Of a stretch of DNA of 64,000 nt, positions 8,237 through 60,652 are shown one piece after another; positions within the stretch are counted from its first letter, which is position 1; each line of letters begins with the position of its first letter. Below the pieces are notes generated by a model. That model was not told where the DNA came from and ran no database searches. It was given only the letters and a program-made list of their open reading frames with translations. This stretch comes from a virus. The stretch lies in the IMG/VR virus record IMGVR_UViG_3300021085_000009, positions 64,001 through 128,000 of that record, one strand, 5' to 3'. A program made the translations under genes and the position numbers.

Positions 8237-8283
8237 AAGGTTTCACTCTCCACCGTTTAGCGTTAATAAATTTATTATACTTC

Positions 8284-8291
8284 TATTTATA
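8284..8291 (-). promoter_or_regulatory. T4-type late promoter TATAAATA
   Basis: Exact consensus upstream of the 2133-aa fibre gene. Confidence 0.75.
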
Positions 8292-8297
8292 CATTTA

Positions 8298-21342: not shown

Positions 21343-24300
21343 TTATGCCGTCGTTGCTATTGCTCTAAAGTCTCCCAACATTGGAACATTAGAGCTGTTA
21401 CGTGATCTTAGTACTACCTTAATTGCAAATTTTGAGAATGCTCCATCTACTACGCCACCTGCTAAACTATTTGCAACTGTAGGATTAATTTCAAAATGTG
21501 CTTCACTCATTCCACTATCAGATACTGGAATTGTGTTTACTGGATTAGCTGGTCTCCAATTTAACTGTGTAAAATCTGAATCGTCTGCACCTGATTGTAC
21601 TTTATAATATAAGTCAACTGAAGAATCAGCTGGCCTTGCTACTGACATATAAACATCGATTAAATCAGCTTCGTTTTCTAATTCAATTTTCTTAGTTATA
21701 TATTTAGCTAAGTTTGTAGTACCAGAAGGTTGTGTCTCAGCTACTAATCTACTATTGGTAGCATAATAAGGTGCAGTAGCGTCATTGATTCTATTTTGAA
21801 TAGTAAACAATGAAGTTCTTTCCAAATCAATGGTTGGAGATATTCTATCGTTTCCATTGTTATTTAATGTACATTTAATTTCTGTAAGTGTTGTAGCTCC
21901 ACCATTTGCATTAGGTGACATAACCATATATGGTTTTTCTGGAACAAAGTTACTATTAGGTAATATTTCAATTTGAGTTTGAGCAGTATATGATTGTTGT
22001 GTTGTACTATCTTGAGATGCTGCTGAAATACCAGTTAAATCTGTTTGTATTGAAGTTCCAGGAACTTGAGTGTTTTCCATTTTTAATACTAATGTATTAT
22101 ATAACATATTTTCAGTAGCAGTAACATTATCTCCACCGCCAAATATTCCAACTGTAGTAGCAGTTCCTGCATGTGTTATAACATATGAGTCATGTTCTAT
22201 CTCTGTAATAGTGTGAGCTTTATTGATGTGTGCTACATTAGTAATACCATTACCAGCAACATAACCAGCAATTATAACTTGATGAGATCCACTACCATAG
22301 TGTCCATGGTTAGAATGATAAACTCTAATTTTATTTGTAGCAATATATTCTAATGAATCTGGATTAAGCTTCTTAGGTTCTATTGAGTCATTGACTAATG
22401 TAACAAATTGATTAGCCGTAGTACTAAATTGGCATCTATTAAGTTTAAATTTAAGATCCTTAGTTTGCTCTGCTGTCCATGTTGAAGCATTAGCTGATGT
22501 AAAGAATACACCGTTATATGGTTGTTTATTAACTCTTTTATTTGTAATGGTTAAATCCATTCCGCCAACTTCTGATACATATACTTTATAATCAGCTGAG
22601 TTTGCAATTAATACAATAGAATACTCAGAGTCTCTTTCCAAATAAACTGGATGTTTAAATCTTATAACAGTTCCTGCTGATGCATCACTTGATATATTAA
22701 TGTTAGCTGGATAAACTGTTACGTCAGAGCCAGGTATAACCTTTTGTGTTGGATAACCATTATCAACAGATCGTATAGAAACTTCCAATGGAATGTTAGC
22801 ATCTATAGATTCAAAGAATAATTCTATCTCATTTAAAAATACACCAGCTCCTGTAGAGTCTGGATCAGTAATTGTAAATGTTTGTGCTACTGGATCTGTC
22901 CATCTGATTAGTTCAGTCGATCTTTCAAATGTAGTTCGACTAACTGCTTTACTTGCTGAACTAACTTCCCTAGTAACTAACCTTGGAACCTTAGTAGCAA
23001 TAATTGTTTTCTGATGAACTTCTAGTAATCCTTGTGCATAATAATTTGCTGATGCATAAGTATCAGCTTCTGATGAATCGTTTGTAGGGCTATCTGTTAG
23101 TTTAAATTCTCTAGTACCAGTTTTAAATTTTAGTACATCGTTTCTAGGAATAATAAATGATCCTATGCATCGACCAGCAGCATCAGTTACTAGTGCACCT
23201 GAATTAGAATCGGGATGTGCACTTTCTCCTGTATGACTTTTAACATTGCTTCTTGTTGAAAATTTAACAAATGATGATTCTTGTCTACAATAGGATGTTA
23301 CTTTAGTACCATTGAAGAAAGCATCTAGCTTTGAATTCGGCTTAAGAAGTTCTGCGTTAAAGAATATTTTTCTTGATCTAATAAATGGTATAAAGTTTGT
23401 TTCTACTACGTAATCGCCAACTTCTTTAAATTGTGTATCTGATGCAACTGAAGTTGTTAGCCCAGATCTTGATTGAGAACCAGTTTCAGTTATAGCTTTT
23501 TGAACATCTTGAACTTCAGCTCTACGGCCACCGTTTCTACCTGGTGCTACAAAACCCATAGCCTCAGCTTTGTTTCTGCTAACTAATCTTTTATTAGATG
23601 TGGTTTCTGTTACTTCTCTACCAGTCCAGTTAGTTTCCCATTCGTTCCATACTGTTCCTAATATGCCTTCTTGCTTAGCCATAGCAACGAACTGATCATA
23701 AACACTAGTATCATCTATGATAATATCTGGTCTTACATCTACTTCTTTCCATTCATCCGATGCAGGAGATAGTTCAATCTTTCCTTCCCATACAAAGATA
23801 TCATATGGATTTACAAATTCAGCATAAGTAGAAAATGGTTGATCGATATAATTAGCTGTAGTATATGGTAGTGTAACCATATCACCTGAACCAGCAAGTG
23901 TGTTTCCTTTTACTCCACTTTCGACTGAAGAGTTAACACATGTACCAGTATCATTAGACTTTCTTACAAGGTTAACGCCTCTTTCATCAAATGATGGTCT
24001 AGCAATTCCAGCATCTTTGTCAACTGAAATTTGATAATCAGGATCATTTGAATTACCAATGTTATGTCCTGTAAAGTTATCTACTATAAATCCGTTTTTA
24101 ATTCTTGGGTTTCCATCGCTATCTAGTAAAGGTGTTCCTTGTGCTGACTTTTCTAATAAAGAAAGCGATGTATAATATTCTAGTGTTTTAATTCGTTTAT
24201 CTAGCTTGCCAATATCTCTCATTGTGTATCGTTTGTTGTCAAATGGTACTGGTTTAATATCTAACTTATTGAATACGTATGGTGATATGTTTAATGTATA

Positions 24301-26829
24301 TAATGGCATTGCATCTTTAACATTTTCAGGAGCTACTGGATTAAGATCTGATACACCAGTTATATACTTATATGCACCTTCCTTAGTTATAAATAATTTA
24401 TCTTTTCTTGGAAGGAATATTGTAACATCATTAGTAGCAATATTGTTTGGAGCTATTGGAGAACTAAGTGATGATATTCCTCCAGCAAAATCTCCATCTA
24501 AATCTTTAACTGGTCTGAAGTCTAAACAATCTCTTAAATCTACAACTCCGGTTGAGCTTTTAAAACTTGGAATCTCTTCGTACTTAGCAGCTTCAAGAGC
24601 TGAAGGTGTAGGATTACCAGGTGTGTAATATGAATCAACTGAGAAATAATCTCCGCCAGTATGTGTATAATGATCTAAGATAATAGTCATATTACCAGGA
24701 GCTATTGATTCGCCACCTTTTAATATGATTGAAGCCTCGTCATAAAAGTTTGCTCTTTGGCCATTGTCAACAACAAATTTATCTGTTACCAGAGTATTTG
24801 CTCCATCTATAATTGAGGTTACTCTAATTACATCAGCTACTCCTAACTCGTAAGTAGAAGTTCCAGCAGAATATGCAATAGTTTTTGTAACGGTTTGTCG
24901 AGATTTAGTTTTAGGTTGAAAGTTAGTTCTTAACACTGTAACAATAGCTGAAATTTGTATTCCAGAAGTCATTGTTTGGCCAGTTTCTGTAGCAGTTAAA
25001 GTAAACTGTGAGTTATTAACACCACCAGATGTAGAATCAACTTCACTTATTTCAAATGTTCTTCCTGAATTATGATTAGCAATTGATATTTGAATATCGT
25101 CGTCATTTGCTAAAACTCCATTAGTAATAGTAAATACCGCTTCTCCAGTACCACCAATAGTAGTATTAACTCTTTGTCTAACTCTATAAGCACCTGTAGT
25201 AGAACCACTAGTTTCTAAAGTTTTTACTGTGTCATAAGGTAACTTAAATACTAATGTGTTATTAGATGTATCAAACAATGTTGCACCAGCAGTAATATTA
25301 CCACTTGCTCCAGTTCCTAAGTTTCCTTTAAAGTCAACGCCAGATAATACTTGTCCTACGCTTTTTACAGAAGAAAATATATTAGTGCCAGTCATTTGCA
25401 AGTCAAATAAGTATAATCTGTAATGGGCTGGATTAACACCGATATATTCAAGTCCTCTAGCTCTTGCTGTACCTATTGGTGTCGATTGATTTACTGCACT
25501 ATATAAAGTTACAGTTGCTAAATTATTAATGTCTGGAATACCTGTTGTACTATCAGTAGTTAACTTAATATAATTGCCTAGTGGAGTTGAAGTTGTAGCT
25601 CCAGCTGCAGTAGCTGTATCGCTAATGCTTCTTGGTTTATCAATTACAATAGGATCCGATGCAGTCTTTTCGACTCGGTATCCTTGGACATAAGCCACTG
25701 AAGGCTCAACAGTAATAGCCATTTTACTAGAATCACCACCGTCAGCAGCTGATAAGTAACCATTGTTTCCAGCTTCATCATTTAAATGTTCGTTAATATC
25801 TAGGATGAATGGTCTTACTGCATAGTTGCCAGACTCTTCGAATGTTCTTGTAGCAAATCGATCCGATAATGTTGTATCAATTGGATCAGTTGATGTTGTT
25901 TGTGTTACACCATTTTTGACGAGGACTAATGGTATAAAGTTAGTAGTTGTTTGTGATGCTACTACAACATTTTCTTTTATTAGTGTAGCAACTATTTTTA
26001 GTCTGTCTGCGCCTGGCGCTGTATGATTAGGTGTTCCTGACGCGTTATCATTAAGTGATTGGTCAGAGCCAGAAGTAACTATTGATTGAACGACACTCAG
26101 TCCGATTGAGTATGAAGGAGTATTAGTATACTTATCTAATATCAAAGTACTTGTTGGAATATGCACAAATGATCCATGTAAGAAATACACGCCTTCTTCT
26201 ATACTTACACTAGAACCAGTTCCAACTGAATCGCCAGTTATTAATGAGTCGCCATTATTAACATCAGCTCCAACATATTCAGTTGCACTTCCTGTACCAC
26301 CGCCAACTTTACCATACCTGGATCCAGTATTAGTAACAAAAACTTCTCCAGTACCAAATGCTTTTACATTTTTATCTGGGCCTCCAGAACTTAAGTATTT
26401 AATAAACAGCGTTATTGGTTCTCCTGGACTAACGTAAGTGCTTACTGCAATAACCTTTGCTTGAACTTGGTTACCAGTATTACCTGTACCAGTAATTGTT
26501 TTACCTACAAAATCATTTAGGTTTGTAGAAGTAGTATATGTTGCTGCACTGCCAGTAGCAATTGTAGAATTAAATACATCTTCTACTTTTATAAAATCAT
26601 AATCGATATTTACTGTGACCTTACCGCCTATAACTCTTGAGCCATTATTAAAAGCCCATTGACCATACTTATCAATCTGTGCTTGTAGCGCTGTTTGTAA
26701 CTGAGTAAGTTCTCTAGCTTGAACTGAATAGCCAGGCTTAAATAAGATTCTATGATAATTTTTTGACTCATCAAAATCATCATGATATGGTTTATCTGGA
26801 TTGTTATAAAGGCTTTTACTTATTGTCAT
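21343..26829 (-). CDS. Large virion structural protein (DUF4815/VrlC-like)
   Basis: PYHDDFDESKNYHRILFKPGYSVQARELTQLQ N-terminus; APGADRLKI; RTFEESGNY. Confidence 0.85.
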   Translation of the reverse strand: MTISKSLYNNPDKPYHDDFDESKNYHRILFKPGYSVQARELTQLQTALQAQIDKYGQWAFNNGSRVIGGKVTVNIDYDFIKVEDVFNSTIATGSAATYTTSTNLNDFVGKTITGTGNTGNQVQAKVIAVSTYVSPGEPITLFIKYLSSGGPDKNVKAFGTGEVFVTNTGSRYGKVGGGTGSATEYVGADVNNGDSLITGDSVGTGSSVSIEEGVYFLHGSFVHIPTSTLILDKYTNTPSYSIGLSVVQSIVTSGSDQSLNDNASGTPNHTAPGADRLKIVATLIKENVVVASQTTTNFIPLVLVKNGVTQTTSTDPIDTTLSDRFATRTFEESGNYAVRPFILDINEHLNDEAGNNGYLSAADGGDSSKMAITVEPSVAYVQGYRVEKTASDPIVIDKPRSISDTATAAGATTSTPLGNYIKLTTDSTTGIPDINNLATVTLYSAVNQSTPIGTARARGLEYIGVNPAHYRLYLFDLQMTGTNIFSSVKSVGQVLSGVDFKGNLGTGASGNITAGATLFDTSNNTLVFKLPYDTVKTLETSGSTTGAYRVRQRVNTTIGGTGEAVFTITNGVLANDDDIQISIANHNSGRTFEISEVDSTSGGVNNSQFTLTATETGQTMTSGIQISAIVTVLRTNFQPKTKSRQTVTKTIAYSAGTSTYELGVADVIRVTSIIDGANTLVTDKFVVDNGQRANFYDEASIILKGGESIAPGNMTIILDHYTHTGGDYFSVDSYYTPGNPTPSALEAAKYEEIPSFKSSTGVVDLRDCLDFRPVKDLDGDFAGGISSLSSPIAPNNIATNDVTIFLPRKDKLFITKEGAYKYITGVSDLNPVAPENVKDAMPLYTLNISPYVFNKLDIKPVPFDNKRYTMRDIGKLDKRIKTLEYYTSLSLLEKSAQGTPLLDSDGNPRIKNGFIVDNFTGHNIGNSNDPDYQISVDKDAGIARPSFDERGVNLVRKSNDTGTCVNSSVESGVKGNTLAGSGDMVTLPYTTANYIDQPFSTYAEFVNPYDIFVWEGKIELSPASDEWKEVDVRPDIIIDDTSVYDQFVAMAKQEGILGTVWNEWETNWTGREVTETTSNKRLVSRNKAEAMGFVAPGRNGGRRAEVQDVQKAITETGSQSRSGLTTSVASDTQFKEVGDYVVETNFIPFIRSRKIFFNAELLKPNSKLDAFFNGTKVTSYCRQESSFVKFSTRSNVKSHTGESAHPDSNSGALVTDAAGRCIGSFIIPRNDVLKFKTGTREFKLTDSPTNDSSEADTYASANYYAQGLLEVHQKTIIATKVPRLVTREVSSASKAVSRTTFERSTELIRWTDPVAQTFTITDPDSTGAGVFLNEIELFFESIDANIPLEVSIRSVDNGYPTQKVIPGSDVTVYPANINISSDASAGTVIRFKHPVYLERDSEYSIVLIANSADYKVYVSEVGGMDLTITNKRVNKQPYNGVFFTSANASTWTAEQTKDLKFKLNRCQFSTTANQFVTLVNDSIEPKKLNPDSLEYIATNKIRVYHSNHGHYGSGSHQVIIAGYVAGNGITNVAHINKAHTITEIEHDSYVITHAGTATTVGIFGGGDNVTATENMLYNTLVLKMENTQVPGTSIQTDLTGISAASQDSTTQQSYTAQTQIEILPNSNFVPEKPYMVMSPNANGGATTLTEIKCTLNNNGNDRISPTIDLERTSLFTIQNRINDATAPYYATNSRLVAETQPSGTTNLAKYITKKIELENEADLIDVYMSVARPADSSVDLYYKVQSGADDSDFTQLNWRPANPVNTIPVSDSGMSEAHFEINPTVANSLAGGVVDGAFSKFAIKVVLRSRNSSNVPMLGDFRAIATTA

Positions 26830-37462: not shown

Positions 37463-37470
37463 TATAAATA
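37463..37470 (+). promoter_or_regulatory. Late promoter TATAAATA
   Basis: Exact consensus upstream of gp2. Confidence 0.75.
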
Positions 37471-46825: not shown

Positions 46826-46862
46826 AATGTAGTTTCCTTATCAAGTTTTATTTTATATGTAT

Positions 46863-46891
46863 ATTGTACCAGGTCTTCATGTAAATGTACA
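46863..46891 (-). promoter_or_regulatory. Early promoter cassette
   Basis: TGTACA-17-(TGG)TACAAT with upstream GCAGAAAACAC. Confidence 0.75.
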
Positions 46892-46915
46892 GTGTTTTCT
46901 GCATTTATTTTGCAA

Positions 46916-47275
46916 TTAAACAACACTTTTTATTACTTCTACGATTACTTTACCATATTTGGCAAACCAACCTTGTTCTTCTGTTAGTGCAATACCATAA
47001 TCATTTGCAATTAACATTGCGGTTTCTGTGTCTAAAAATGAGTTACCTACCAATACAAACCCTGCACTTGAAACTAATAGAAACATATGATCATTAGCCC
47101 TAAAGCTGTGGATCATTATGAATAGAGTACCTAAAAACAATAGAATATATGCATATAATTCCATGTGGGGATTAGTGTTTATACCTAACGCCATTGTCAT
47201 GCCTAAAAACAACAAAGAACAACCAGAGACTTTAAAGGTCCCTTGTATCATATTGTTTATGTGTTTCTTAGTCAT
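46916..47275 (-). CDS. Hypothetical membrane protein (three TM)
   Basis: Hydrophobic helices. Confidence 0.6.
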   Translation of the reverse strand: MTKKHINNMIQGTFKVSGCSLLFLGMTMALGINTNPHMELYAYILLFLGTLFIMIHSFRANDHMFLLVSSAGFVLVGNSFLDTETAMLIANDYGIALTEEQGWFAKYGKVIVEVIKSVV

Positions 47276-47276
47276 T

Positions 47277-47492
47277 TTAAATTTCTTCTACAGTAATTCT
47301 GTAGCTTTTTCCATTGACGTCAGTGCATTCAATAGTCTTCGTGGTTGTTTGCATCCAACCTTCTTTATGAAGATCCATCTTTACTCTGTCAACACTATCA
47401 ATTAATCCATTAAACTCGCCACAATCTTTGTCGAGTCCAGGTTTGATTATAGTGTGTGCGATGTAGTCGCAGTAAGCCATTGACGAAGCCAT
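47277..47492 (-). CDS. Hypothetical protein
   Basis: Coupled ORF. Confidence 0.6.
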   Translation of the reverse strand: MASSMAYCDYIAHTIIKPGLDKDCGEFNGLIDSVDRVKMDLHKEGWMQTTTKTIECTDVNGKSYRITVEEI

Positions 47493-47701
47493 TATGATTC
47501 GTCCTCAGTTCCAAACATCGATGCCCAGCACGATGGTGTACAACCAGAGATCAAAAACTCCCTTTGATCCACTGTCGCTTCAGGCATTGCGTCCTGAATG
47601 AGAGTACCATCCTGCCATAGAGCAACTTGCTCTAAAGTAGCATTAATACCCATGGTGTTGGTTTGACCAGTGACGGGGCTTAGTTTTTCGCATAAAATCA
47701 T
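47492..47701 (-). CDS. Conserved hypothetical phage protein
   Basis: LIQDAMP...QREFLISG.TP..W motif. Confidence 0.65.
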   Translation of the reverse strand: MILCEKLSPVTGQTNTMGINATLEQVALWQDGTLIQDAMPEATVDQREFLISGCTPSCWASMFGTEDES

Positions 47702-47734
47702 AATATATTCCTTGTTTGATTAATTTATATGTAT

Positions 47735-47793: not shown

Positions 47794-48207
47794 TTACCAA
47801 CATGTACCAAATAGATACTCTTCTCTGGCATAAGCTTCCTTTTCCCAGGGTTGATTGTGGTACTGATAGTTACGTGGTTTACGACCCTTCCAGGATCCAC
47901 TGTAGCCGTCGAGTTCCCCTCGTAAATATTGTTTGGCATGAACCATCTCATGAGCTAGAGTTTGCATCATCTCGGCCGTTGAGTAAGGTTCTCCTTCACA
48001 GGTTTTGGCTATGTTAATAGTTATATATCCTTCCTTACGATCACCCCAGCAATTACCCTGGTTACCATCGTCGAGCTCTTTACTAAACCTAACGATAATC
48101 GCTTTAGATCTCAATCTGTGTATGTTTAACGACCTAGATAGATTCTCTAAGTAGCCGTATATGTACTTTTTGTTCTTTATTTGACCATTAATCTGTAAAT
48201 AAATCAT
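47794..48207 (-). CDS. HExxH zinc-metallopeptidase-like protein
   Basis: TLAHEMVHAKQY...PWEKEAY. Confidence 0.75.
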   Translation of the reverse strand: MIYLQINGQIKNKKYIYGYLENLSRSLNIHRLRSKAIIVRFSKELDDGNQGNCWGDRKEGYITINIAKTCEGEPYSTAEMMQTLAHEMVHAKQYLRGELDGYSGSWKGRKPRNYQYHNQPWEKEAYAREEYLFGTCW

Positions 48208-48309: not shown

Positions 48310-48849
48310 CTAAAACGCCGTAGCGAATACGTACATTTCCTTCTCTGTATCGTACACTTCCTTACCATTTGGTAACCACACCTCACGGTTCTCACAGTCG
48401 ATTCCGACCTCGTATCGCCTACTAGCCTTACTTTTGGCGAATAACTGAAGGTCCATAATTTGTGCTAAATCATACCACAATTTACGACCACCCTTACTCT
48501 GGCATTCTCCGGCTTGTAGAGTGATTCCTAACTTCTTGATTATATAGCGATATGCCTGAGCCGCTATCCCTCTACCTGCATAAGATTTATCCAATTTGGT
48601 GATATCTACATGCCAGGCCTTAAATTTGGTCCTTGAGAGATTGATATATAGAACCCTTTTTAGCCGTTGTGGTGACCTTCCATGGGTTACAGTTGGATCA
48701 ACTACCTCTATTTCCATAAAACCGTCCATAGAACGGTCTACGTATACGTGGAGACGCCTAAAAGATCCTATTTTTTCCCAATCTTCGTAGGTAGGCCTAC
48801 TGTCGAAATACCCGAGCTTTTCGCTCTTTTTCATGTGGATTCGATCCAT
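48310..48849 (-). CDS. GNAT-family acetyltransferase-like protein
   Basis: YAGRGIAAQAY (motif A-like), QSKGGRKLW. Confidence 0.6.
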   Translation of the reverse strand: MDRIHMKKSEKLGYFDSRPTYEDWEKIGSFRRLHVYVDRSMDGFMEIEVVDPTVTHGRSPQRLKRVLYINLSRTKFKAWHVDITKLDKSYAGRGIAAQAYRYIIKKLGITLQAGECQSKGGRKLWYDLAQIMDLQLFAKSKASRRYEVGIDCENREVWLPNGKEVYDTEKEMYVFATAF

Positions 48850-48878
48850 TCCCTTTCCTTATCATTTAATATAGGTAT

Positions 48879-48907
48879 ATTCTATCATGGCTGGATCGAA
48901 AAGAACA
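48879..48907 (-). promoter_or_regulatory. Early promoter cassette
   Basis: TGTTCT-17-(TGA)TAGAAT; near-duplicate of 48223-48254. Confidence 0.65.
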
Positions 48908-48946
48908 GGGTTTTCTGCCGTTTTTTTATACTTTTTAGTTATAAGG

Positions 48947-50785
48947 TTATAACGAGGGGGAATATATGGTTATAAGGTCCTTTTTACCTTTTACGGTAAT
49001 TTGGCCAATTTTTGTGCATTTTAGGCTAGAGGGTAACCTGGCGTAGGTATCCCCAGAAATGATGGTTTTATTATCGATATATTCCTTTCTGGCCGCTGTG
49101 GCCTCTAATCTCGCGGCCAGGTTTACGGCGTCTCCAATGACCGAATAATCGAATCTAGACTCACTACCCATATTACCTACAATACAGTCACCCGTATTAA
49201 TACCAGTTCCGACGTTAATAGGGGGTAAACCCTGCTCACTATATTTCTTTCTGAGCTCGTCGGTTTTCTTTTCTATATCTATTGCTGCCCTTACTGCCAT
49301 TTCGGCGTGCCTTTCACATTCCAAAGGAGCATTCCAAAAGGCCATAATACAATCACCCATATATTTGTCTATGGTTCCGCCATGGCTCAAAATTATTTTG
49401 GTCATAGCATCAAGGAATTCGTTAATTAATACTACTAATCCTTCTGGATCATTCTTATTTTTATAGTGTTCTGATATAGGAGTAAATCCTACAATATCCA
49501 TAAAGAGGAACGACATCTGTCTTCGCTCTCCACCAAGCTTTAATAGGCCTGGATTTTTCTGTAATAGGTATACTTGTTTAGGATCTAAATATGTCTCAAA
49601 CTGTTTCTTAATTTGTTGCCTTAACATATATTGTTTATAAAAGTTATTAAAACTAGCTGATGAAAAGACTGTTATATATAGTAATAGAAAATAACTAATA
49701 TCAAGGAGAATTCCCCATTCATTCCAGACGTATGCAACAGAAGCTCCGGTCGAGATCGCAAGCCCAGCGAAGAGCATGGCTGATGAACGAATCGAACGAT
49801 AATATACAATATAGACCAAGAGTCCCGAAGCAATTAGCATTGCCAGGATTTCAATTAAATCCGCCCAGAGAGGACGAGATATCGATATTTCATCCATTAT
49901 TGACTGGATGGACGCAGCTTGAATATGATGAGCTGATTGAAGACCAGCAGGAGTTGGAATCTGAGCCGCTAATCCCTTCGCCGTCAGTCCAATTAGAACT
50001 GTTCGGCCCTGAAGATCAGGCAGCTTGGTCCCGACCTCTATTTCCGTAAAGGTATAATTATGGTTAATCCAGAATGACCCATTAGGATCTGTAGTAATTC
50101 TAAATGGCCTAATAATTATTTCTTCTATACCCACTTCGTTAACTTTTACCGTATAAGATAATCGTTCATTAGATACTCTAAGAAGTTCTAGTGCAAACGA
50201 TGGGTATAGTTCCTTATTAATTTGACTTAATAGAGGTATTCTACGCACTAATCCATCAACTTCTGGCATGCCATTTATTAATCCAGTACCCCATGCACCT
50301 TGTTCTATTTCAGTTATATTTGTAACCAATCCTTTATATCTTATAGCCCAATCTAATGGATCACCTGTACCAAATGTTGCTGAACCTACATAAGGTGCTT
50401 TAGTGCTTCTTCCTCTTTCATCTGCATCTTGAGATAATATAATACCATTATCGTTTACCCAAGAAGCAAACACCTCGTCTCCACCAAATCTATCAGCCTC
50501 TGGAAACATTAGTGTAAATCCAATTAAGCCAGCATTAGCGTTTCTTAGATCAGATATTAATTGTGCATAGGTTTGACGAGGGAATGGGTATTGTCCTAAT
50601 AGACCTAAGGATTCTTCTCCTATATTCAGTAGAACTATATCTGATTTCTTTTCTGGAATTGTAGAGATATATTGATCAAAAGTGTTTAATCTTAACTGCT
50701 GAACAGGGCTAGGGTCTATTACTCTTATGGTTATAAGAATAAGCGATAATATTATAGTTGTCCATATCGATGTTAAGTATTTCAT
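48947..50785 (-). CDS. CHASE2-domain class III adenylate cyclase
   Basis: N-terminal TM; CHASE2-like YPFPR..EVDGLVRRIPL; three TM; FMDIVGFT, DKYMGDCIMAFW, DYSVIGDAVNLAARLE. Confidence 0.93.
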   Translation of the reverse strand: MKYLTSIWTTIILSLILITIRVIDPSPVQQLRLNTFDQYISTIPEKKSDIVLLNIGEESLGLLGQYPFPRQTYAQLISDLRNANAGLIGFTLMFPEADRFGGDEVFASWVNDNGIILSQDADERGRSTKAPYVGSATFGTGDPLDWAIRYKGLVTNITEIEQGAWGTGLINGMPEVDGLVRRIPLLSQINKELYPSFALELLRVSNERLSYTVKVNEVGIEEIIIRPFRITTDPNGSFWINHNYTFTEIEVGTKLPDLQGRTVLIGLTAKGLAAQIPTPAGLQSAHHIQAASIQSIMDEISISRPLWADLIEILAMLIASGLLVYIVYYRSIRSSAMLFAGLAISTGASVAYVWNEWGILLDISYFLLLYITVFSSASFNNFYKQYMLRQQIKKQFETYLDPKQVYLLQKNPGLLKLGGERRQMSFLFMDIVGFTPISEHYKNKNDPEGLVVLINEFLDAMTKIILSHGGTIDKYMGDCIMAFWNAPLECERHAEMAVRAAIDIEKKTDELRKKYSEQGLPPINVGTGINTGDCIVGNMGSESRFDYSVIGDAVNLAARLEATAARKEYIDNKTIISGDTYARLPSSLKCTKIGQITVKGKKDLITIYSPSL

Positions 50786-50870
50786 ACGTATATATCTATA
50801 AAGTTTCCCTTTAGTGCTTCAAGAAATCTATACCTTCGATAGTAATTAAACTTTTTAATATTACAGTATG

Positions 50871-51587
50871 TCATTCTTGAGTTACAGATGTAGAGCAACC
50901 ACCAAAAGTCATACAGTCAACACTTAATGTATATGTTTGATTAGTTCCACTCATTTGCTTTAATATTAAATCAGTTCCGTATAAACCATCAAGTGTAATA
51001 TTTGCGTTATGGGTAGCACCATTACCCTTTTGACGAATAAACACGTCGTTATTATCATTGTAAATTGTAAGGTCTATATTCTTTGCACCATTACTTTGTT
51101 GCTTTATTTTAACCTCGTTATAATCTCCAGCTAGATGTAAATCAAAGTCGTGGCCATCAAGTGCACCTGTTTGGTTTGTTTGTTGAACTGCTAATTGATT
51201 GTTGTCGCCATATAAGGTAATATCTATTTCGTGTCCACCACTCTCATAGTTATCTACCCACCAAGTTAAATCGGTATCAGAATCAAGTGTAGTCCATGCA
51301 GCACCTTGAGCAAGTTTCATCTGATTACCAGTACCACTTATTTCGTCAAAGGTAATTTTATTAGGAAGTCCACCTGTTGTTGTATTAACCTGCACTAAAT
51401 ACATATCTAAATTAGATGCTGTAATGTATGAATTAGTGTCTAACATCTCAACGTTATTATTAAACCCATATTGATCAATGCCTAATTGAAAGTTATCTCC
51501 AGATTGTTCTAATGATATTAGGTTATCATCAGCAAAACAAATTGCTGGAAGTAATAATACGCTTAAAATAAATATAATTTCTTTCAT
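50871..51587 (-). CDS. Secreted curlin-repeat protein (CsgA/CsgB-like)
   Basis: Signal peptide; EQSGDN..IDQYGFNN, LYGDNNQLAVQQ, LAGDYNEVKIKQQ repeats. Confidence 0.7.
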   Translation of the reverse strand: MKEIIFILSVLLLPAICFADDNLISLEQSGDNFQLGIDQYGFNNNVEMLDTNSYITASNLDMYLVQVNTTTGGLPNKITFDEISGTGNQMKLAQGAAWTTLDSDTDLTWWVDNYESGGHEIDITLYGDNNQLAVQQTNQTGALDGHDFDLHLAGDYNEVKIKQQSNGAKNIDLTIYNDNNDVFIRQKGNGATHNANITLDGLYGTDLILKQMSGTNQTYTLSVDCMTFGGCSTSVTQE

Positions 51588-52697
51588 TTAATTCACCTGA
51601 TTTATATAGATGAGAATGTCGTCACCCTCATTTCCTGTAATTATTCCGTCCCATGTTGGTGTGTATGCATCTATTGTAAAATTACCACCAGCACCAATTT
51701 TTAATCTTATAGAACCATTTATATTTCTATATAATACTAAAGAACCATCTTGTAAAAATACATTAAACTGTGATTCATCATTAAATCCTCTTGTTGCACC
51801 TTTAATATCAAATTCGCCTAATGTGTCGAAAAGATCAGAACTATCTATAATATCTAATACATCAACTAAAAACTCTACATCTAATTCGTCAATATCTAAT
51901 TCACTGAATTCGTCCAATTCATCTTCTTCAAGCTCATCTTTTTCTAATTCAGTAAACTCTAAAAAATCTATATCTAATATGCCTTGATCTTCATTAGCGT
52001 CATCGGCCATTTCTTCTCTTATCCTCTCCTTTACTTCTGGAGGAGGTGATACAATAAACATGTTATCAATTAATGATGGTGTAATACCATTTACTTTAAT
52101 TGCTTGTGTTGGTGATGAATCTAATGTTGCTACCATTGTTGCGGCATAGGCTTCGTTTAATGTAACTACTCCACCTTCATTAGAAACTACTATTTCGCCA
52201 GATGGGTCACCGTTTTCATCTGGTAGTAATATGATTAGGCTTCTACCTAACTCATCTACTGTTGTTGTAAAATCAGTACCCCGTACAGCTATTGAGGCTG
52301 TAGGAGTTTTAATATCAATATTGGCTTTATTCACTAATCCTAATCTTCCAGATGCGAATCTTGCCGTTCCCATTGTAAACTTCATACTCATCTTTGAGAG
52401 TGAAGGATCAGGGTCATAATATATTTCGTCTATTAGTACTTCAGAATGTTCCTTTAAAGATAGTTGAGCTTTATCTAAAAACTCAATAAGCATTCTTCCG
52501 TTACCAGTTTTTGCTTCATCATTTAATTCAATAGGTATCTGATTAGATACTTTTATCTCTTCATTGTTACGTACAATCTGGCTTACACCAGTCGACTCTA
52601 CTATATCACCAATGGAATCTGCTTCAACCCCACTGGCGAATAGTATAAGACTAACTATCGTTAGCTGCGTCTTTCTGATTAATTTGTATGGTAGCAT
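51588..52697 (-). CDS. FecR-domain periplasmic protein with an acidic tract
   Basis: KTGNGRMLIEFLD..LKEHSEVLIDE, IKTPTASIAVRGTDF. Confidence 0.85.
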   Translation of the reverse strand: MLPYKLIRKTQLTIVSLILFASGVEADSIGDIVESTGVSQIVRNNEEIKVSNQIPIELNDEAKTGNGRMLIEFLDKAQLSLKEHSEVLIDEIYYDPDPSLSKMSMKFTMGTARFASGRLGLVNKANIDIKTPTASIAVRGTDFTTTVDELGRSLIILLPDENGDPSGEIVVSNEGGVVTLNEAYAATMVATLDSSPTQAIKVNGITPSLIDNMFIVSPPPEVKERIREEMADDANEDQGILDIDFLEFTELEKDELEEDELDEFSELDIDELDVEFLVDVLDIIDSSDLFDTLGEFDIKGATRGFNDESQFNVFLQDGSLVLYRNINGSIRLKIGAGGNFTIDAYTPTWDGIITGNEGDDILIYINQVN

Positions 52698-53388
52698 TAT
52701 CTGACGTAATATCTAAATTAATGATAGCATTAGGAGTTGCACAAGGTGAACCTCCAACACAAGTACCTGAAATTTGATTAATATCAACGTCACCACTATC
52801 TCCATTCCACTCTACAGTTAATGATTGAGAACCATCGTTTTGTAATGTGTTAAAGTTATTGCTGTCGCCAGTAATATCAAAATTCCAAGTTATATCATCA
52901 GATTCAAAATCTAAATCAAATACGTTTGAACTACCTAATAGAATTAAATCAGCATCTAGTCTTTCTGCACTTGCTCCAACTTTACCTTGATCTATATCAA
53001 ATGTATTACTGTCTCCAGTAATAGCAAAGGCGTAATTAGAAGAATCTGAACTTCCGGTATCTCCAATATTCCAATCAACTTCGTTTGAATCTCCAGTTAA
53101 TGAAAATGTCAAAGAAGATGAATCTAAGACTAAAGGTCCGAAGATTAAATTCTGATTACCAATCATATCTAAATCAAAAGTTAAAGATGAACCCACTACG
53201 GTCATATCAGACCCACTTGATGAAAAATCATCTAGACCAATTTTGTTACCATAACCCACTTGATCTATAAATAATGTTAAAGTATCACCTGTCTGATCTA
53301 TTCTAATTTCGTTATCATCTGTAGCTTGTGCGAAAACAAACGGTGTTGATAACAATCCAAGGATAGTTATACTTAAAAATTTATTCAT
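52651..53388 (-). CDS. Secreted curlin-repeat protein (CsgA/CsgB-like)
   Basis: Signal peptide MNKFLSITILG..VFA; repeated hxhxGDSN units, IDQxG; start moved to 53388. Confidence 0.75.
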   Translation of the reverse strand: MNKFLSITILGLLSTPFVFAQATDDNEIRIDQTGDTLTLFIDQVGYGNKIGLDDFSSSGSDMTVVGSSLTFDLDMIGNQNLIFGPLVLDSSSLTFSLTGDSNEVDWNIGDTGSSDSSNYAFAITGDSNTFDIDQGKVGASAERLDADLILLGSSNVFDLDFESDDITWNFDITGDSNNFNTLQNDGSQSLTVEWNGDSGDVDINQISGTCVGGSPCATPNAIINLDITSDNATIQINQKDAANDS

Positions 53389-54340
53389 TTTCGTTTTCCT
53401 CTTTATGTGTATGCCTTTCGTTTTTCCCATCAACTTGATGAGGATGTCTATGGCCTACGGTTAAATTCCAGAACTTACGGTCGTGACCCTGGTAGATTAA
53501 TTCCAAAACTGCAGCTTCGATAGCAGCTCTAACTGCATATGTAACTGACTCATTATTACCCACGCCGTCCTCGTATTCTATAAGTTGTGTTCCTTGTTCA
53601 ATAAACCTAAACAAGTCTCCACCACTTCCGTAAGATAATACCGATTTCTTACTTTGGACGTTTAACAAAACTTCACCTGTTAATACTGACACCGCTCTCA
53701 CAGATACAGTAACAACATCTTTACGATACATTTTACTAAAACCTATACCAAGTGTTCGTGCACCACGACCACCTGTTTCAGTGTTAGTATCATAACCAAT
53801 AATACCCCCTTCTATAATCATTCCGGCGAATAGAAGAGGTCCAACTCCTTTGGCAGCCTCAGCCCCTGTGGCTTTAGCTACTTCTTGTCGGGTAGATCTT
53901 ACAATTTGTCTTTCCCTTACAAGATTATCAATCCCTTGTCTTTCTACTACTCTAAACCAAGTTCCGCCACCTGCAGTTTTGAGTGCATCTATTAGTAATT
54001 CAGTACCACCTTGGGTAACTGCAGTAGAGAACGATGCTATATTATCTACTGATTTTCTTTGACCTGTTAAATCTTTAAATCCATATACTGCAACAATAGG
54101 TTTATCTTTTGCTGGAGGTAAATTTAATAAATCTACATATGCTGGTAATCTAACTGCAGTTGGTTCATCAACGCAGATATATTTCCTAGCCATGGTTTTT
54201 TGTAGACCCATTTGTAAATGTCTATTAAAACCTTCATCATACTTACCTGCTAAATCATTACAATCTTGGTAGTTATCACTCCATTGAGGCACTGATGCGC
54301 ATCCACTAAGCATTAATAATACTATTAGATACTTACCCAC
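53381..54340 (-). CDS. csgG: Curli secretion channel CsgG lipoprotein
   Basis: Lipobox LSGC; VAVYGFKDLTGQRK, FSTAVTQG, WFRVVERQGIDNLVRERQIVR, EGGIIGYDTN. Confidence 0.93.
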   Translation of the reverse strand: MGKYLIVLLMLSGCASVPQWSDNYQDCNDLAGKYDEGFNRHLQMGLQKTMARKYICVDEPTAVRLPAYVDLLNLPPAKDKPIVAVYGFKDLTGQRKSVDNIASFSTAVTQGGTELLIDALKTAGGGTWFRVVERQGIDNLVRERQIVRSTRQEVAKATGAEAAKGVGPLLFAGMIIEGGIIGYDTNTETGGRGARTLGIGFSKMYRKDVVTVSVRAVSVLTGEVLLNVQSKKSVLSYGSGGDLFRFIEQGTQLIEYEDGVGNNESVTYAVRAAIEAAVLELIYQGHDRKFWNLTVGHRHPHQVDGKNERHTHKEENENE

Positions 54341-54827
54341 CGTCAGAGTCCTGTCCAAAGTTTCCAGTTCCTACTGGTATTTCAATAACTGTAGTAGTTC
54401 CATCAGAATCAACTATTGTCATTTTAATATATTCGGATCCATCCTCATTTGTTAATACTTCGTATGTTACTACATTACCTTCTAAAGTAAATGAACCAAA
54501 TCTTACAGAACCATCATTACTAAACATAGATTCAACAAGCTGCTTAGACATTTGAGCATATATTCTACTTTCTAAGTTACGAATAAACTTAGCCATAGTA
54601 CTATTTGCTTCTTCTCTCTCAGCGGCTTTTCTTGCAGCCTCTAAAGCATCTTGTATTGCCTTTTTTCTTGAATGCTCTTGGTTCTCAATTGTTAAATAAT
54701 GTGCTCCAGTTCCAACTCCGCTAAAAGATGGATTTTTAAATCCAAATTTAATTTCGTCTGCTTCTACAACTAAACTCTGTGTAGAAAATATTGCTGTTAA
54801 TAGTATAATTTCAAATCGTTTTTTCAT
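54333..54827 (-). CDS. csgF: Curli assembly component CsgF
   Basis: Signal peptide then FKNPSFSG..G; LESRIYAQMSKQL; TTTVIEIP. Confidence 0.85.
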   Translation of the reverse strand: MKKRFEIILLTAIFSTQSLVVEADEIKFGFKNPSFSGVGTGAHYLTIENQEHSRKKAIQDALEAARKAAEREEANSTMAKFIRNLESRIYAQMSKQLVESMFSNDGSVRFGSFTLEGNVVTYEVLTNEDGSEYIKMTIVDSDGTTTVIEIPVGTGNFGQDSDGG

Positions 54828-55083
54828 TTTCCTTTTCTAACTCCAAGACCTTTTGTCTTTCTTTATATTCAAGTACTACTTTTATCTTTTCTTGTAATCT
54901 TATCATATCTTGATCAAGCATTCGAACCTGATCAATTAACCGTATTAAACCCATATGCATTTCTTCAAGCTTTGGCTCTAATTCAGAAGACACAAACTGC
55001 CATACATAAAATACAAAATAACCAAGTCCTACTAATGCCACTGTCTCAAATCCAAATTCGATAATTAATCCAGCTATATCCAT
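54811..55083 (-). CDS. Small single-TM coiled-coil protein
   Basis: FGF..VGLGYFVFYVW then LIRLIDQVRMLDQD. Confidence 0.7.
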   Translation of the reverse strand: MDIAGLIIEFGFETVALVGLGYFVFYVWQFVSSELEPKLEEMHMGLIRLIDQVRMLDQDMIRLQEKIKVVLEYKERQKVLELEKENEKTI

Positions 55084-55379
55084 TAGTCTCTTCTTGTGTC
55101 TATTTTTCCATCCTCTGCAAAATTTTCAGCTCGGGCCACTCTGTCAATAGGAGGGGTTAACTCTAATGCACTAGATACTAATAAATCAATTTTAATAATT
55201 TCATTATTCATAGATCTAGCCCTATTTTCTAAAGATTTAGTAAATATTGTTAAGGTACTTATTTGATCTAATACGCCACCAAATATTTGTTTAATTACTA
55301 TAAATACAAAGACGCCACATGCTATAGCAGCTGCTATAGGCACGCCCACATCTTTAATTAAAGCAAACAAATCTTCCAT
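55083..55379 (-). CDS. Small single-TM coiled-coil protein (probable paralog of neighbour)
   Basis: DVGVPIAAAIACGVFVFIVI then LENRARSMNNEIIKID. Confidence 0.7.
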   Translation of the reverse strand: MEDLFALIKDVGVPIAAAIACGVFVFIVIKQIFGGVLDQISTLTIFTKSLENRARSMNNEIIKIDLLVSSALELTPPIDRVARAENFAEDGKIDTRRD

Positions 55380-55385
55380 ATAATC

Positions 55386-55393
55386 TATTTATA
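55386..55393 (-). promoter_or_regulatory. Late promoter TATAAATA heading the curli operon
   Basis: Exact consensus 6 nt upstream of ATG 55379. Confidence 0.8.
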
Positions 55394-55404
55394 AGATTAA
55401 TTGT

Positions 55405-55722
55405 TTAGAACGATATTGATTGTCCACAGCCGCAGGACGCGACTTCATTTGGATTTAAGAATTTGAATTCTGAATTTAGACCCTTGGTTTGGTAATCAAG
55501 GGTCATATTCATAAAATTGTGTAAATGGCCTGTTTCAATAACCAAGACATAATCGCCATAATCGATTATGTGATCGTCTGCATTACTGTCAGTAACAAAT
55601 ACAAACTCGTATTTCCAACCGTTGCAACCAGCAGGAAGAAGCCCAATTCTGATAATATTTTCACCAGCCTTACGTGTCTTTTCGACGAGTTTTTCATGTG
55701 CTTTCTCGGTTATATCTATCAT
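55405..55722 (-). CDS. iscA: HesB/IscA A-type Fe-S carrier
   Basis: ITEKA, GCNGWKY, FLNPNEVASCGCGQS. Confidence 0.9.
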   Translation of the reverse strand: MIDITEKAHEKLVEKTRKAGENIIRIGLLPAGCNGWKYEFVFVTDSNADDHIIDYGDYVLVIETGHLHNFMNMTLDYQTKGLNSEFKFLNPNEVASCGCGQSISF

Positions 55723-55995: not shown

Positions 55996-56187
55996 TTATG
56001 AACTGATTAAATTAAGTTCATTTATTGATTTATGCCAGTCTGAGTATCTAAAAAGACCTTGCTTTTCATGACACCAATACCAACCTTTACTTTCTTGTTC
56101 CTCTTGTGGAATACTAGATTCGACCTTTAAAGGGCCTCCAGTCTTCCCATAAGTCTTTCTGCTCTGTTCGTTACTTGCTTGTACCAT
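55996..56187 (-). CDS. Hypothetical protein overlapping the 3' end of the lysozyme; start uncertain
   Basis: GWYWCHEK..FRYSDW fills the gap in the operon. Confidence 0.4.
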   Translation of the reverse strand: MVQASNEQSRKTYGKTGGPLKVESSIPQEEQESKGWYWCHEKQGLFRYSDWHKSINELNLISS

Positions 56188-56597
56188 CTTGAATCTCTCC
56201 CTTCAACAGCCGCTACCGGCCAATCACCACATTGCAGCGCTGCGTTGTGTTTTTTAAATTTACTTAAGCGCGTAAGTCCCATGTTGAACATCATGTTCGC
56301 AATGACTTGTTTCACTTCTTGTGGATATCCATCCCACCCGTCGTGTAATTTTTTACAATCCTCGATTACTGTTTCTACATCCTTGGCAAAACATTCAATG
56401 ACTCTATCCTCTGCCACTGCAGTACCGACCTCCAACCCATGTTCTGGGTCTCCTTCAAGTACCAAGTGTCCAATGCCAAATGTAGCATAACCGAGGTGAT
56501 CATGATAAATTTCATTTACTTGTCCCTCGTCTATAATTAATTGTTCTCTTAACTGATCTACATCAATCACCGTTTTTTCTTCTTTATTCCAAAACAT
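56127..56597 (-). CDS. T4-type lysozyme (GH24) endolysin
   Basis: E-x8-D-x5-T triad in DEGQVNEIYHDHLGYATFGIGH; NMMFNMG; DSRWYKQVTNRA. Confidence 0.93.
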   Translation of the reverse strand: MFWNKEEKTVIDVDQLREQLIIDEGQVNEIYHDHLGYATFGIGHLVLEGDPEHGLEVGTAVAEDRVIECFAKDVETVIEDCKKLHDGWDGYPQEVKQVIANMMFNMGLTRLSKFKKHNAALQCGDWPVAAVEGRDSRWYKQVTNRAERLMGRLEAL

Positions 56598-60644: not shown

Positions 60645-60652
60645 TATTTATA
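60645..60652 (-). promoter_or_regulatory. Late promoter TATAAATA for the RimK fusion
   Basis: Exact consensus 5 nt upstream of the ATG. Confidence 0.8.

Follow-up and report, generated by a model that had tools for sequence, protein, structure and literature searches.

Why would a phage carry, in a single run of genes, both a curli-type secretion apparatus and a receptor predicted to make cAMP? The question is raised by eight head-to-tail open reading frames (ORFs) at 55393-48947 (minus strand) of a 64,000-nucleotide stretch of viral DNA, hereafter the window, which comprises bases 64001-128000 of the 136.8-kb IMG/VR viral record IMGVR_UViG_3300021085_000009, itself estimated to be 76% complete. 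As delineated by the ORF list together with Pfam and PHROGs matches, these genes encode two small membrane proteins (TM1 and TM2), homologues of CsgF and CsgG, a curlin-repeat protein (A), a FecR-like periplasmic protein, a second curlin-repeat protein (B) and a receptor cyclase with a CHASE2 domain. The locus is a further member of the 'viral T8SS' (type VIII secretion system) cassette known from pelagiphages, whose gene content and linkage have been published; the module is genuine and conserved, is ecologically widespread, and occurs in abundant marine phages whose hosts are of SAR11 and OM43 type. What is new here are statistics on the neighbourhood of FecR and CHASE2 genes, the homology of the FecR-like protein to the PupR fold and to periplasmic plugs, a bacterial version of the cassette, and the outcome of a search for a cAMP reader. 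The explanation that we find best, and in which we have about as much confidence as doubt, is that the cassette joins export of curlin-like proteins to a FecR/CHASE2 sensor pair tied to the outer membrane.

Conservation of the cassette among phages

Viral relatives were collected with CsgG and with the cyclase as seeds. CsgG gave 236 loci and the cyclase at least 597, and the counts refer to the 80 best in each case; the two sets share contigs, and near-duplicates were kept in both. Among the 37 cyclase-seeded loci with at least 5.5 kb of upstream sequence, CsgG was present in 36, FecR in all 37, and the complete set of eight genes was colinear in 31; in the CsgG-seeded set, 38 of the 39 loci with enough flank carried all eight colinearly. 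This gene order is far from chance. A preliminary description of the window, drawn up from its letters alone, had let its reading depend on cyclase and FecR genes co-occurring with csgFG in other genomes, and these counts show that they do. The order is also identical in the Pelagibacter phage HTVC008M (KC465899) and the Methylophilales phage Melnitz (MZ577097), to which the window proteins are 35-51% identical, with identities rising to 92-99% for uncultured IMG/VR contigs. In the GenBank record of Melnitz the cyclase is annotated as such, as are a FecR domain protein and two curlin associated repeat proteins.

In the accessible portions of the published work, two papers interpret these genes as a partial system: Zaragoza-Solas et al. 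2020 (PMC7029224) describe a partial curli system or pore, and Buchholz et al. 2022 (PMC9004378) an incomplete pore said to lack the fibre genes, and the words cyclase and FecR are absent from those portions of either. Wittmers et al. 2022 (mSystems, PMC9599517) give the order 'HK'-CsgF-CsgG-CsgA/B-FecR-CsgA/B-adenylate cyclase in podo- and myophages, detect cassette genes in metatranscriptomes and at every one of 65 ocean stations, and propose an alphaproteobacterial origin with transfer between phage families; their text, as far as accessible, treats FecR as an iron regulator and states that FecR and the cyclase do not occur in bacterial T8SS operons. The window shows the same genes in the same order as that module, with no structural difference, and only the reading of it differs. 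The preliminary description gave the incomplete-pore reading for HTVC008M and Melnitz but was out of date in omitting Wittmers et al., and the union of pore, substrates and a signalling output to which it pointed is no new observation, since that paper had already reported the combination. The word CHASE2 does not occur in the main text of Wittmers et al. 2022, the supplement of which may hold such domain calls, and a literature search found no paper joining CHASE2 'adenylate cyclase', phage and curli.

Late-promoter box and RNA cover

The cassette genes overlap or abut, with the single exception of an 85-nt gap ahead of the cyclase. The box TATAAATA, which we take to be the T4-type late-promoter consensus, lies at 55386-55393 (minus strand), 6 nt upstream of the TM1 ATG. 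It occurs 21 times in the window against 12.4 expected, and for 11 of these 21 an ORF starts no more than 100 nt downstream, which holds for 5.9% of random positions. Of 75 distinct relatives, 50 keep the copy upstream of TM1, usually at a distance of 5-6 nt from the ATG. The box ends 5-6 nt before a start codon at 55386-55393 (-), 60645-60652 (-) and 37463-37470 (+). Such a spacing leaves no room for a ribosome-binding site, and leaderless late mRNAs or mis-set starts are therefore possible. Scans for sigma-70 promoters and for terminators returned the same counts as in shuffled sequence.

Contigs from the RNA libraries of two studies cover 52.0-55.1 kb, from CsgG to TM2, and a single contig spans CsgG, CsgF and TM2, while in four RNA runs the bins at 48807-49207 and most of the cyclase gene have little or no cover; DNA may be present in these libraries, and contigs of this kind can demonstrate neither absence nor a single transcript. 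The cover is compatible with expression of the cassette.

Curli-type secretion proteins

The CsgG lipoprotein (53381-54358, minus strand, as are all cassette genes) matched PF03783 with E 3.8e-52 and 177.1 bits against a cut-off of 20.8, which places it among type VIII secretion channels. Its lipobox reads L-S-G-C, the Cys being Cys20, residues 69-300 align to the Escherichia coli CsgG structures 3x2r/4uv3 (E 2.4e-44), and a Cys-containing N-terminal stretch of ~45 residues precedes the part that can be aligned to the E. coli protein. The CsgF homologue (54333-54827; phrog_35372) matched PF10614 with E 9.4e-15 and 55.4 bits against a cut-off of 25.8 and carries a signal peptide, although a phmmer search with it against PDB sequences found no CsgF. 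Its mature N-terminus (...FGFKNPSFSG...) resembles what we take to be the CsgF plug motif.

Both putative substrates have signal peptides and C-terminal Cys pairs and qualify as secreted curlin-repeat subunits, B by its Pfam score and A by its profile. Curlin-like A (52651-53433), the likely start of which is the ATG at 53388 and the signal peptide of which ends AQA, reached E 0.0021 and 18.4 bits with Curlin_rpt, below the 20.7 cut-off, and its family profile matched the curlin-repeat structure 8c50 (1.4e-6) and CsgA 8enq (1.8e-4). Curlin-like B (50871-51587) exceeded the same cut-off with 21.8 bits and has the weaker family profile, matching 8c50 at 0.014; the two profiles are homologous to each other (hhalign 99.7%). 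B is the least conserved cassette gene in 37 of 68 identity profiles and is the fastest-evolving gene of the cassette. On these assignments CsgG and CsgF would carry both curlin-like proteins out onto the infected cell's surface.

The window thus shares CsgG, CsgF and curlin-repeat substrates with the E. coli CsgBAC-CsgDEFG system and differs from it in several respects. CsgE and CsgC were not found in the 136.8-kb phage record, nor in the operon by Pfam, and CsgD, judged from the operon Pfam scan alone, was not found there; the CsgG score with NCBIfam (163.6 bits) is below the equivalog cut-off of 505. E. coli CsgA has a Gly-rich N-terminal targeting segment, whereas the curlin-like proteins of the window, at ~240 aa and with their Cys pairs, are without one.

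The most upstream genes encode TM1 (55083-55379, 98 aa; phrog_18771, E 3.4e-22), which has a single hydrophobic helix at its N-terminus and a tail that is also helical, and its paralogue TM2 (54811-55083, 90 aa; phrog_18771, E 5.6e-23), likewise with one N-terminal hydrophobic helix. Neither matched a Pfam family even at E<=10, nor any NCBIfam family. TM1 is probably one of the genes named 'HK' in Wittmers et al. 2022. We considered histidine kinases as an identity for TM1 and TM2 and rejected them, because the same searches returned no HisKA/HATPase or other kinase domain and proteins of 90-98 aa are too small for a kinase core; the printed 'HK' label is therefore unsupported here. The Atlas neighbours of TM1 are clusters with viral members only, and one TM1/TM2 Atlas cluster bears the automatic name 'MotA/TolQ/ExbB', which has no Pfam support and serves as a lead only.

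The receptor cyclase

The last gene (48947-50785) encodes a 612-aa receptor that consists of an N-terminal helix, a periplasmic CHASE2 domain (~24-312), a hydrophobic block (~310-380) and a class III catalytic domain. CHASE2 was recognised over residues 16-322 by PF05226 (E 4.3e-38; 131.8 bits against a cut-off of 26.3), between hydrophobic segments at 5-23 and 310-377, and the catalytic domain by Guanylate_cyc (PF00211, E 1.8e-21), with Pseudomonas aeruginosa CyaB 3r5g as its closest solved relative (E 5.9e-36). Placed by the alignment to 3r5g, residues D430, K474, D478, S548, N555 and R559 do not vary across the 18 viral sequences compared; we take D430 and D478 to be the metal-binding aspartates, K474 the substrate lysine, S548 the Thr/Ser position, and N555 and R559 the transition-state Asn/Arg. 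Judged by these residues the class III adenylate cyclase catalytic domain is intact, and the predicted receptor would synthesize cAMP. The catalytic domain is better conserved than the sensory one, with median identities of 62% for the cyclase and 49% for CHASE2.

With this gene the inventory given in the preliminary description stands: all eight genes were recovered at the positions and in the order it listed, the CsgG, CsgF, curlin-repeat, FecR, CHASE2 and cyclase families were matched by profile (curlin-like A falling below its Pfam cut-off), and its late-type promoter box, intact CsgG lipobox and CHASE2 adenylate cyclase all held up. So did its remark that CsgE, CsgC and CsgD are not visible, record-wide for the first two and in the operon Pfam scan for CsgD.

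Domains and fold of the FecR-like protein

The protein encoded between the two curlin genes (51588-52697, 369 aa) matched the FecR domain PF04773 with E 3.8e-8 and 34.1 bits against a cut-off of 24, beginning near residue 27 after a signal-peptide-like segment. In an AlphaFold2 (AF2) model built from an 84-row alignment (pLDDT, the predicted local distance difference test, 73.2), which replaced an unusable model from 18 sequences (pLDDT 49.8), the N-domain (~27-225) is a confident beta-sandwich, the linker (226-295) is acidic (42% Asp+Glu) and of low pLDDT, and the C-domain (296-369) is small, beta and confident. Within the protein conservation is lowest in the C-domain, whose median identity is 31% versus 57% for the N-domain. 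We asked whether the C-domain might be a curlin-like rung and dropped the idea, as hhalign gave at most 9.5% against both curlin profiles.

Fold searches, whose match lists were taken up by N-domain matches, aligned the N-domain with the PupR signalling domain 6ovk over 138 residues (Z 15.7, root-mean-square deviation (rmsd) 2.6) and with the Bacteroidales anti-sigma factor 4m0n (Z 14.7). By sequence, the family profile found a different partner among PDB entries, the MpIBP anchor domain 5ix9 (E 1.2e-8, 37.9 bits), and did not find PupR; in fold, the N-domain and 5ix9 agree over 73 of 76 residues with 22% identity (Z 6.8, rmsd 2.9). In the accessible parts of the relevant papers, the 5ix9 domain figures as a plug that stays in the periplasm, being too big for the TolC pore (PMC5550230), and as the template for the LapA retention module, likewise a periplasmic plug (bioRxiv 10.1101/198937). 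A literature search found no paper joining 'retention module' with FecR.

The phage protein shares the periplasmic signalling fold and the Pfam FecR domain with the FecR/PupR regulators (6ovk), but it has a Sec-type signal peptide, no other membrane helix and no cytoplasmic anti-sigma part, and Pfam found no extracytoplasmic function (ECF) sigma factor or TonB-dependent transducer in the operon or the neighbours examined. With the LapA/MpIBP adhesins it shares a related N-terminal beta-sandwich followed by a flexible stretch, and the idea of a periplasmic plug is common to both. Those adhesins are secreted by the type I route through a TolC-like pore and carry C-terminal RTX signals, whereas the phage protein has its Sec signal, a length of 369 aa, no RTX repeats found by Pfam, and CsgG encoded beside it. 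The FecR-like protein shares a domain with anti-sigma regulators and with RTX adhesins and is a member of neither group.

FecR-CHASE2 pairs in bacteria

To place the pair in its bacterial context, 185,579 species genomes were scanned with the FecR alignment, which yielded 80 loci, eight with the cassette and 72 others; in all bacterial loci FecR and CHASE2 were called by our own hidden Markov models at E<=1e-3, with a Pfam check on a subset. A CHASE2 gene was present in 19 of the 72, nine with a cyclase output and ten with another output, and of the 23 small FecR genes flanked on each side by 3 kb or more, 13 had CHASE2 within 2 kb. Pfam confirmed examples with a cyclase and with an HD-GYP output, the latter with an OmpA-family gene in between.

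The reciprocal sample was seeded with CHASE2, for which 67 of 151 Alphaproteobacteria-class genomes were positive and the best match of 40 was taken. By E-value order the sample passes over G192 and G002, whose locus is L180; it further leaves out G118, G183, G129, G139, G108, G046 and G185, whose matches lie less than 6 kb from a contig start, and the 18 genomes lowest in the E-value list. A FecR-domain ORF lay within 3 kb in 16 of the 40 loci, often within 200 nt, and the output was a cyclase in 39. Against a background of ~103 FecR matches in ~118.6 Mb, 38 of them in one genome, chance adjacency is estimated at ~0.7% (<1%). FecR-domain genes adjoin CHASE2 genes far above chance in bacteria.

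The outputs of the CHASE2 partners vary and include cyclase, HD-GYP and PP2C domains, and an operon of a LysM-FecR protein with a CHASE2 histidine kinase is described for Burkholderiales and PAO1 in the accessible part of one study (PMC5192318). In these bacterial pairs a secreted FecR-domain protein stands beside a CHASE2 receptor, as in the phage, either alone or with OmpA or LysM peptidoglycan-binding parts, and a T8SS accompanies them only in loci L166 and L167, described below. Adjacency with such varied outputs makes the FecR-CHASE2 combination look like a portable sensor pair and not an iron regulator. The preliminary description had CHASE2 cyclases acting with FecR-domain partners in trans-envelope signalling; the gene neighbourhood (16 of 40, 13 of 23) sustains the partnership, joint signalling would be a plausible function of the pair, and the outer-membrane partner proven for the CHASE2 cyclases of Sinorhizobium meliloti is another protein. 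In that system, as far as the accessible text relates (PMC13001267), the adenylate cyclases CyaD1, CyaD2 and CyaK answer an outside protein signal via the outer-membrane beta-barrel NsrA and the CRP-type reader Clr. The phage differs in having CsgG and not NsrA, and no such reader was found in its record. The S. meliloti regulon includes a FecR-domain gene, smc02177 (PMC5498481, accessible part).

A second group of relatives links the domain to adhesins: 26 of the 72 FecR-seeded relatives are the N-termini of large proteins (740 to >2,980 aa), RTX repeats were found in three of five examined, two of which also carry FG-GAP repeats, and at L208 and L243 two large FecR-headed proteins are encoded divergently from, and adjoining, a CHASE2 cyclase. 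In Rhodospirillales metagenome-assembled genomes (MAGs), ORFs of >2,900 aa with a FecR-like start run off the locus (L173:7659-16538 and L175-L179, L200, L214); no Pfam family matched the giant-ORF stretch of L173 at E 1e-3, while related giants carry RTX and FG-GAP repeats. A FecR-CHASE2 pair with a non-cyclase output is also present in a streamlined genome: L272:5938-10808, from a 1.2-Mb Pelagibacter-type family genome (G014), encodes a CHASE2-SpoIIE (PP2C) protein, a 435-aa protein without a Pfam family and a 504-aa FecR-domain protein.

A bacterial version of the cassette

Of the eight cassette-bearing loci from species genomes, six have the small membrane proteins, two of these (L164 and L165) sharing other phage genes with the window, and these six look like phage contigs in MAG bins. 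The remaining two, L166 and L167, come from Caulobacteraceae MAGs apparently obtained in one sampling campaign, and are listed as CsgF-CsgG-curlin-curlin-FecR-CHASE2 cyclase without the small proteins, at ~5000-11100 of the locus. Their flanks are bacterial and differ between the two, with genes for glycosyltransferases, a TonB-dependent receptor, peptidase S9, acyl-CoA dehydrogenase, amidohydrolase, TetR and DsbA. As the cassette stands between bacterial genes in both, a cellular version exists, contrary to the statement in Wittmers et al. 2022. In L167 a calcineurin-like phosphoesterase gene lies ~430 nt upstream of csgF.

Proposed mechanism

We propose that the cassette is transcribed from the T4-type late-promoter box and that CsgG and CsgF would place the two curlin-like proteins on the outside of the infected cell. 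One sensor pair, taken over from bacteria, would be made up of the FecR-like protein and the CHASE2 cyclase; the FecR domain, in the periplasm, would signal to CHASE2, which would set cAMP synthesis in the cytoplasm. The FecR-like protein would also connect the pair to the outer membrane. The N-domain, bulky as it is, may be retained in the periplasm like the LapA/MpIBP plug, while the acidic linker and variable C-domain would extend to the fibre or else enter or traverse the CsgG channel, and events at the surface could thereby pass inward. The PupR signalling domain binds an outer-membrane transducer. By analogy with PupR and with the adhesin plugs, it is the FecR-like protein that may couple the sensor to the fibre or to the apparatus in the outer membrane. 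The low conservation of curlin-like B, the FecR C-domain and CHASE2 fits exposure of the outer parts of such an assembly.

This trans-envelope sensor is plausible but unproven. A more specific form of it, in which the virus brings an outside-in sensor with the FecR-like plug seated at CsgG, would have a pull on, binding to or loss of the exposed C-domain or fibre act on the CHASE2 cyclase, so that cAMP reaches an unrecognised reader and the course of infection changes; the triggers would be contact with surfaces, cells or other phages, in hosts mostly without CRP-type proteins. This whole chain, taken jointly, we regard as distinctly improbable. The roles in sensing superinfection and timing lysis put forward in the preliminary description are speculation.

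Several results weigh against the proposed sensor. The contacts among the cassette products are themselves suggested by analogy; a complex prediction for CHASE2 (24-312) with the FecR N-domain (27-235), run without controls, returned 'no answer' with a score of 0.00 and speaks neither for nor against such a contact. The 5ix9 fold match (Z 6.8) is graded middling by the fold-search tool, and a FecR-domain tree (quick method, 99 rows) leaves the sister of the viral clade unsettled between CHASE2 partners and RTX giants. Among viral loci, the 2.2-2.6 kb upstream of the cyclase contain no recognisable FecR or curlin B gene in six of the cyclase-seeded set, an insert of 2.5-3.2 kb precedes the cyclase in two, and podophages, according to the accessible text of Wittmers et al. 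2022 (PMC9599517), are often without the cyclase and the second curlin. In bacteria, 24 of the 40 CHASE2 loci have no FecR neighbour, from which it follows that CHASE2 receptors work without FecR, and in S. meliloti, the one CHASE2-cyclase system that has been studied, the outer-membrane partner is NsrA and smc02177 is reported (PMC5498481, accessible part) as dispensable for plant-signal perception. CsgG, CsgF and curlin matches, L166 and L167 apart, were found in none of the 72 FecR-seeded and none of the 40 CHASE2-seeded loci, and the linkage of T8SS and FecR-CHASE2 genes may go back to a single chance event and have been passed on as a block.

The fate of the cAMP is a further difficulty. 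A search of the 136.8-kb phage record turned up neither a cNMP-binding nor a GAF_2 domain, and cNMP_binding occurs in only two of 41 Pelagibacter-type family genomes compared with 10 of 14 controls; class III cyclases likewise occur in two of the 41. With none in the record and so few in a family to which the host may belong, a cAMP reader is missing. One candidate was considered: downstream of the L166 cyclase by 441 nt, at 11539-12132 (+) of that locus, lies a gene for a Pycsar effector-like membrane protein (PycTM; PF18967, E 8.8e-25). It was rejected as the missing reader, being present in L166 only; PycTM was not found in the phage record, in L167 or in five other cassette-bearing genomes, and the phage cyclase does not form a Pycsar pair. 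The presence of such an effector beside the L166 cyclase is a hint that the ancestral module may have coupled surface sensing to a membrane-acting effector.

Alternative explanations

According to Wittmers et al. 2022 (PMC9599517), in the portion accessible, the cassette makes curli fibres that serve aggregation ('sibling capture') or form a barrier to other phages, FecR is an iron-linked regulator, and the cyclase regulates T8SS expression, as cAMP and CsgD do in E. coli. Fibres are in keeping with the presence of CsgG and CsgF and of two curlin-repeat proteins that carry signal peptides, and the proposal is published with ocean-wide gene frequencies and metatranscriptome matches. The regulatory half of it is harder to reconcile with the locus, where the FecR-like protein has no anti-sigma part, the operon has neither ECF sigma factor nor TonB-dependent transducer, the phage record yielded no regulator of the CsgD or cNMP-binding kind, and late genes under a phage promoter need no control of the cAMP/CsgD type. 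The bacterial relatives of the FecR-like protein adjoin CHASE2 receptors or head RTX giants, not iron regulons, and no clumping was seen in Melnitz cultures in the account of Buchholz et al. (PMC9004378, accessible part). We hold fibres alone, with iron-linked and cAMP-linked regulation, to be rather unlikely as the full explanation. The published lysis proposal of Buchholz et al. 2022 (PMC9004378, accessible part), in which CsgG with or without CsgF is a gated secretin- or pinholin-like pore that times lysis and the rest is accessory, is a further alternative. A phage lysozyme gene ~750 nt upstream (PF00959, E 2.8e-6), the late-type box on the operon and the failure to find a CsgE gate would suit it, but the fibre genes stated there to be lacking are present, and an outer-membrane pore of such size leaves the conserved curlin-like proteins, FecR-like protein and receptor cyclase unexplained. 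This account is very unlikely.

It is also conceivable that the block was captured whole from a bacterium and that its halves act apart, the CHASE2 cyclase, with or without FecR, sensing a cue from the periplasm or the environment that has nothing to do with the T8SS and reprogramming or draining the host by turning ATP into cAMP, while CsgG, CsgF and the curlin-like proteins do separate work. A six-gene bacterial version exists in L166 and L167, FecR-CHASE2 pairs are common without a T8SS (CsgG in 0 of 40 and 0 of 72 loci), and the 85-nt gap, extended to an insert of 2.5-3.2 kb in some relatives, falls just before the cyclase. What speaks against independent action is the tightness of viral colinearity (31 of 37, 38 of 39) down to identities of ~35-50%, together with the position of the FecR gene, which in every cassette seen is flanked by the two curlin genes and does not adjoin the cyclase (for L166 and L167, see the listed order above). 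We consider independent action unlikely. The reading in which the FecR/CHASE2 pair is tied to the curlin-exporting apparatus remains the one that we prefer. If FecR and CHASE2 form a general sensor pair, CHASE2 gains a testable partner, the 'FecR' label in phages ceases to point to iron, and the phage module becomes a compact, expressible model of signalling across two membranes. The missing cAMP reader in streamlined hosts poses a sharp question.

Neighbouring genes in the window

Directly upstream of the cassette, at 55405-55722 (-), lies a gene for an IscA/HesB-type Fe-S cluster protein (PF01521, E 1.2e-11), and the phage lysozyme gene stands farther upstream at 56127-56597 (-). Two genes downstream of the cyclase, at 47794-48207 (-), a 137-aa protein with a HExxH motif and no signal peptide is encoded, with weak matches to SprT-like, Peptidase_M91 and M76 families. 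Over 46844-47730 one contig from RNA run X15 lacks 885 nt, which are replaced by 10 different letters; it probably represents a strain variant without the small genes of that interval. Four very long minus-strand ORFs lie at 1835-8236 (2133 aa), 8298-12305 (1335 aa), 14638-21105 (2155 aa) and 21343-26829 (1828 aa); several of them are preceded by TATAAATA, and they presumably encode structural or fibre proteins.

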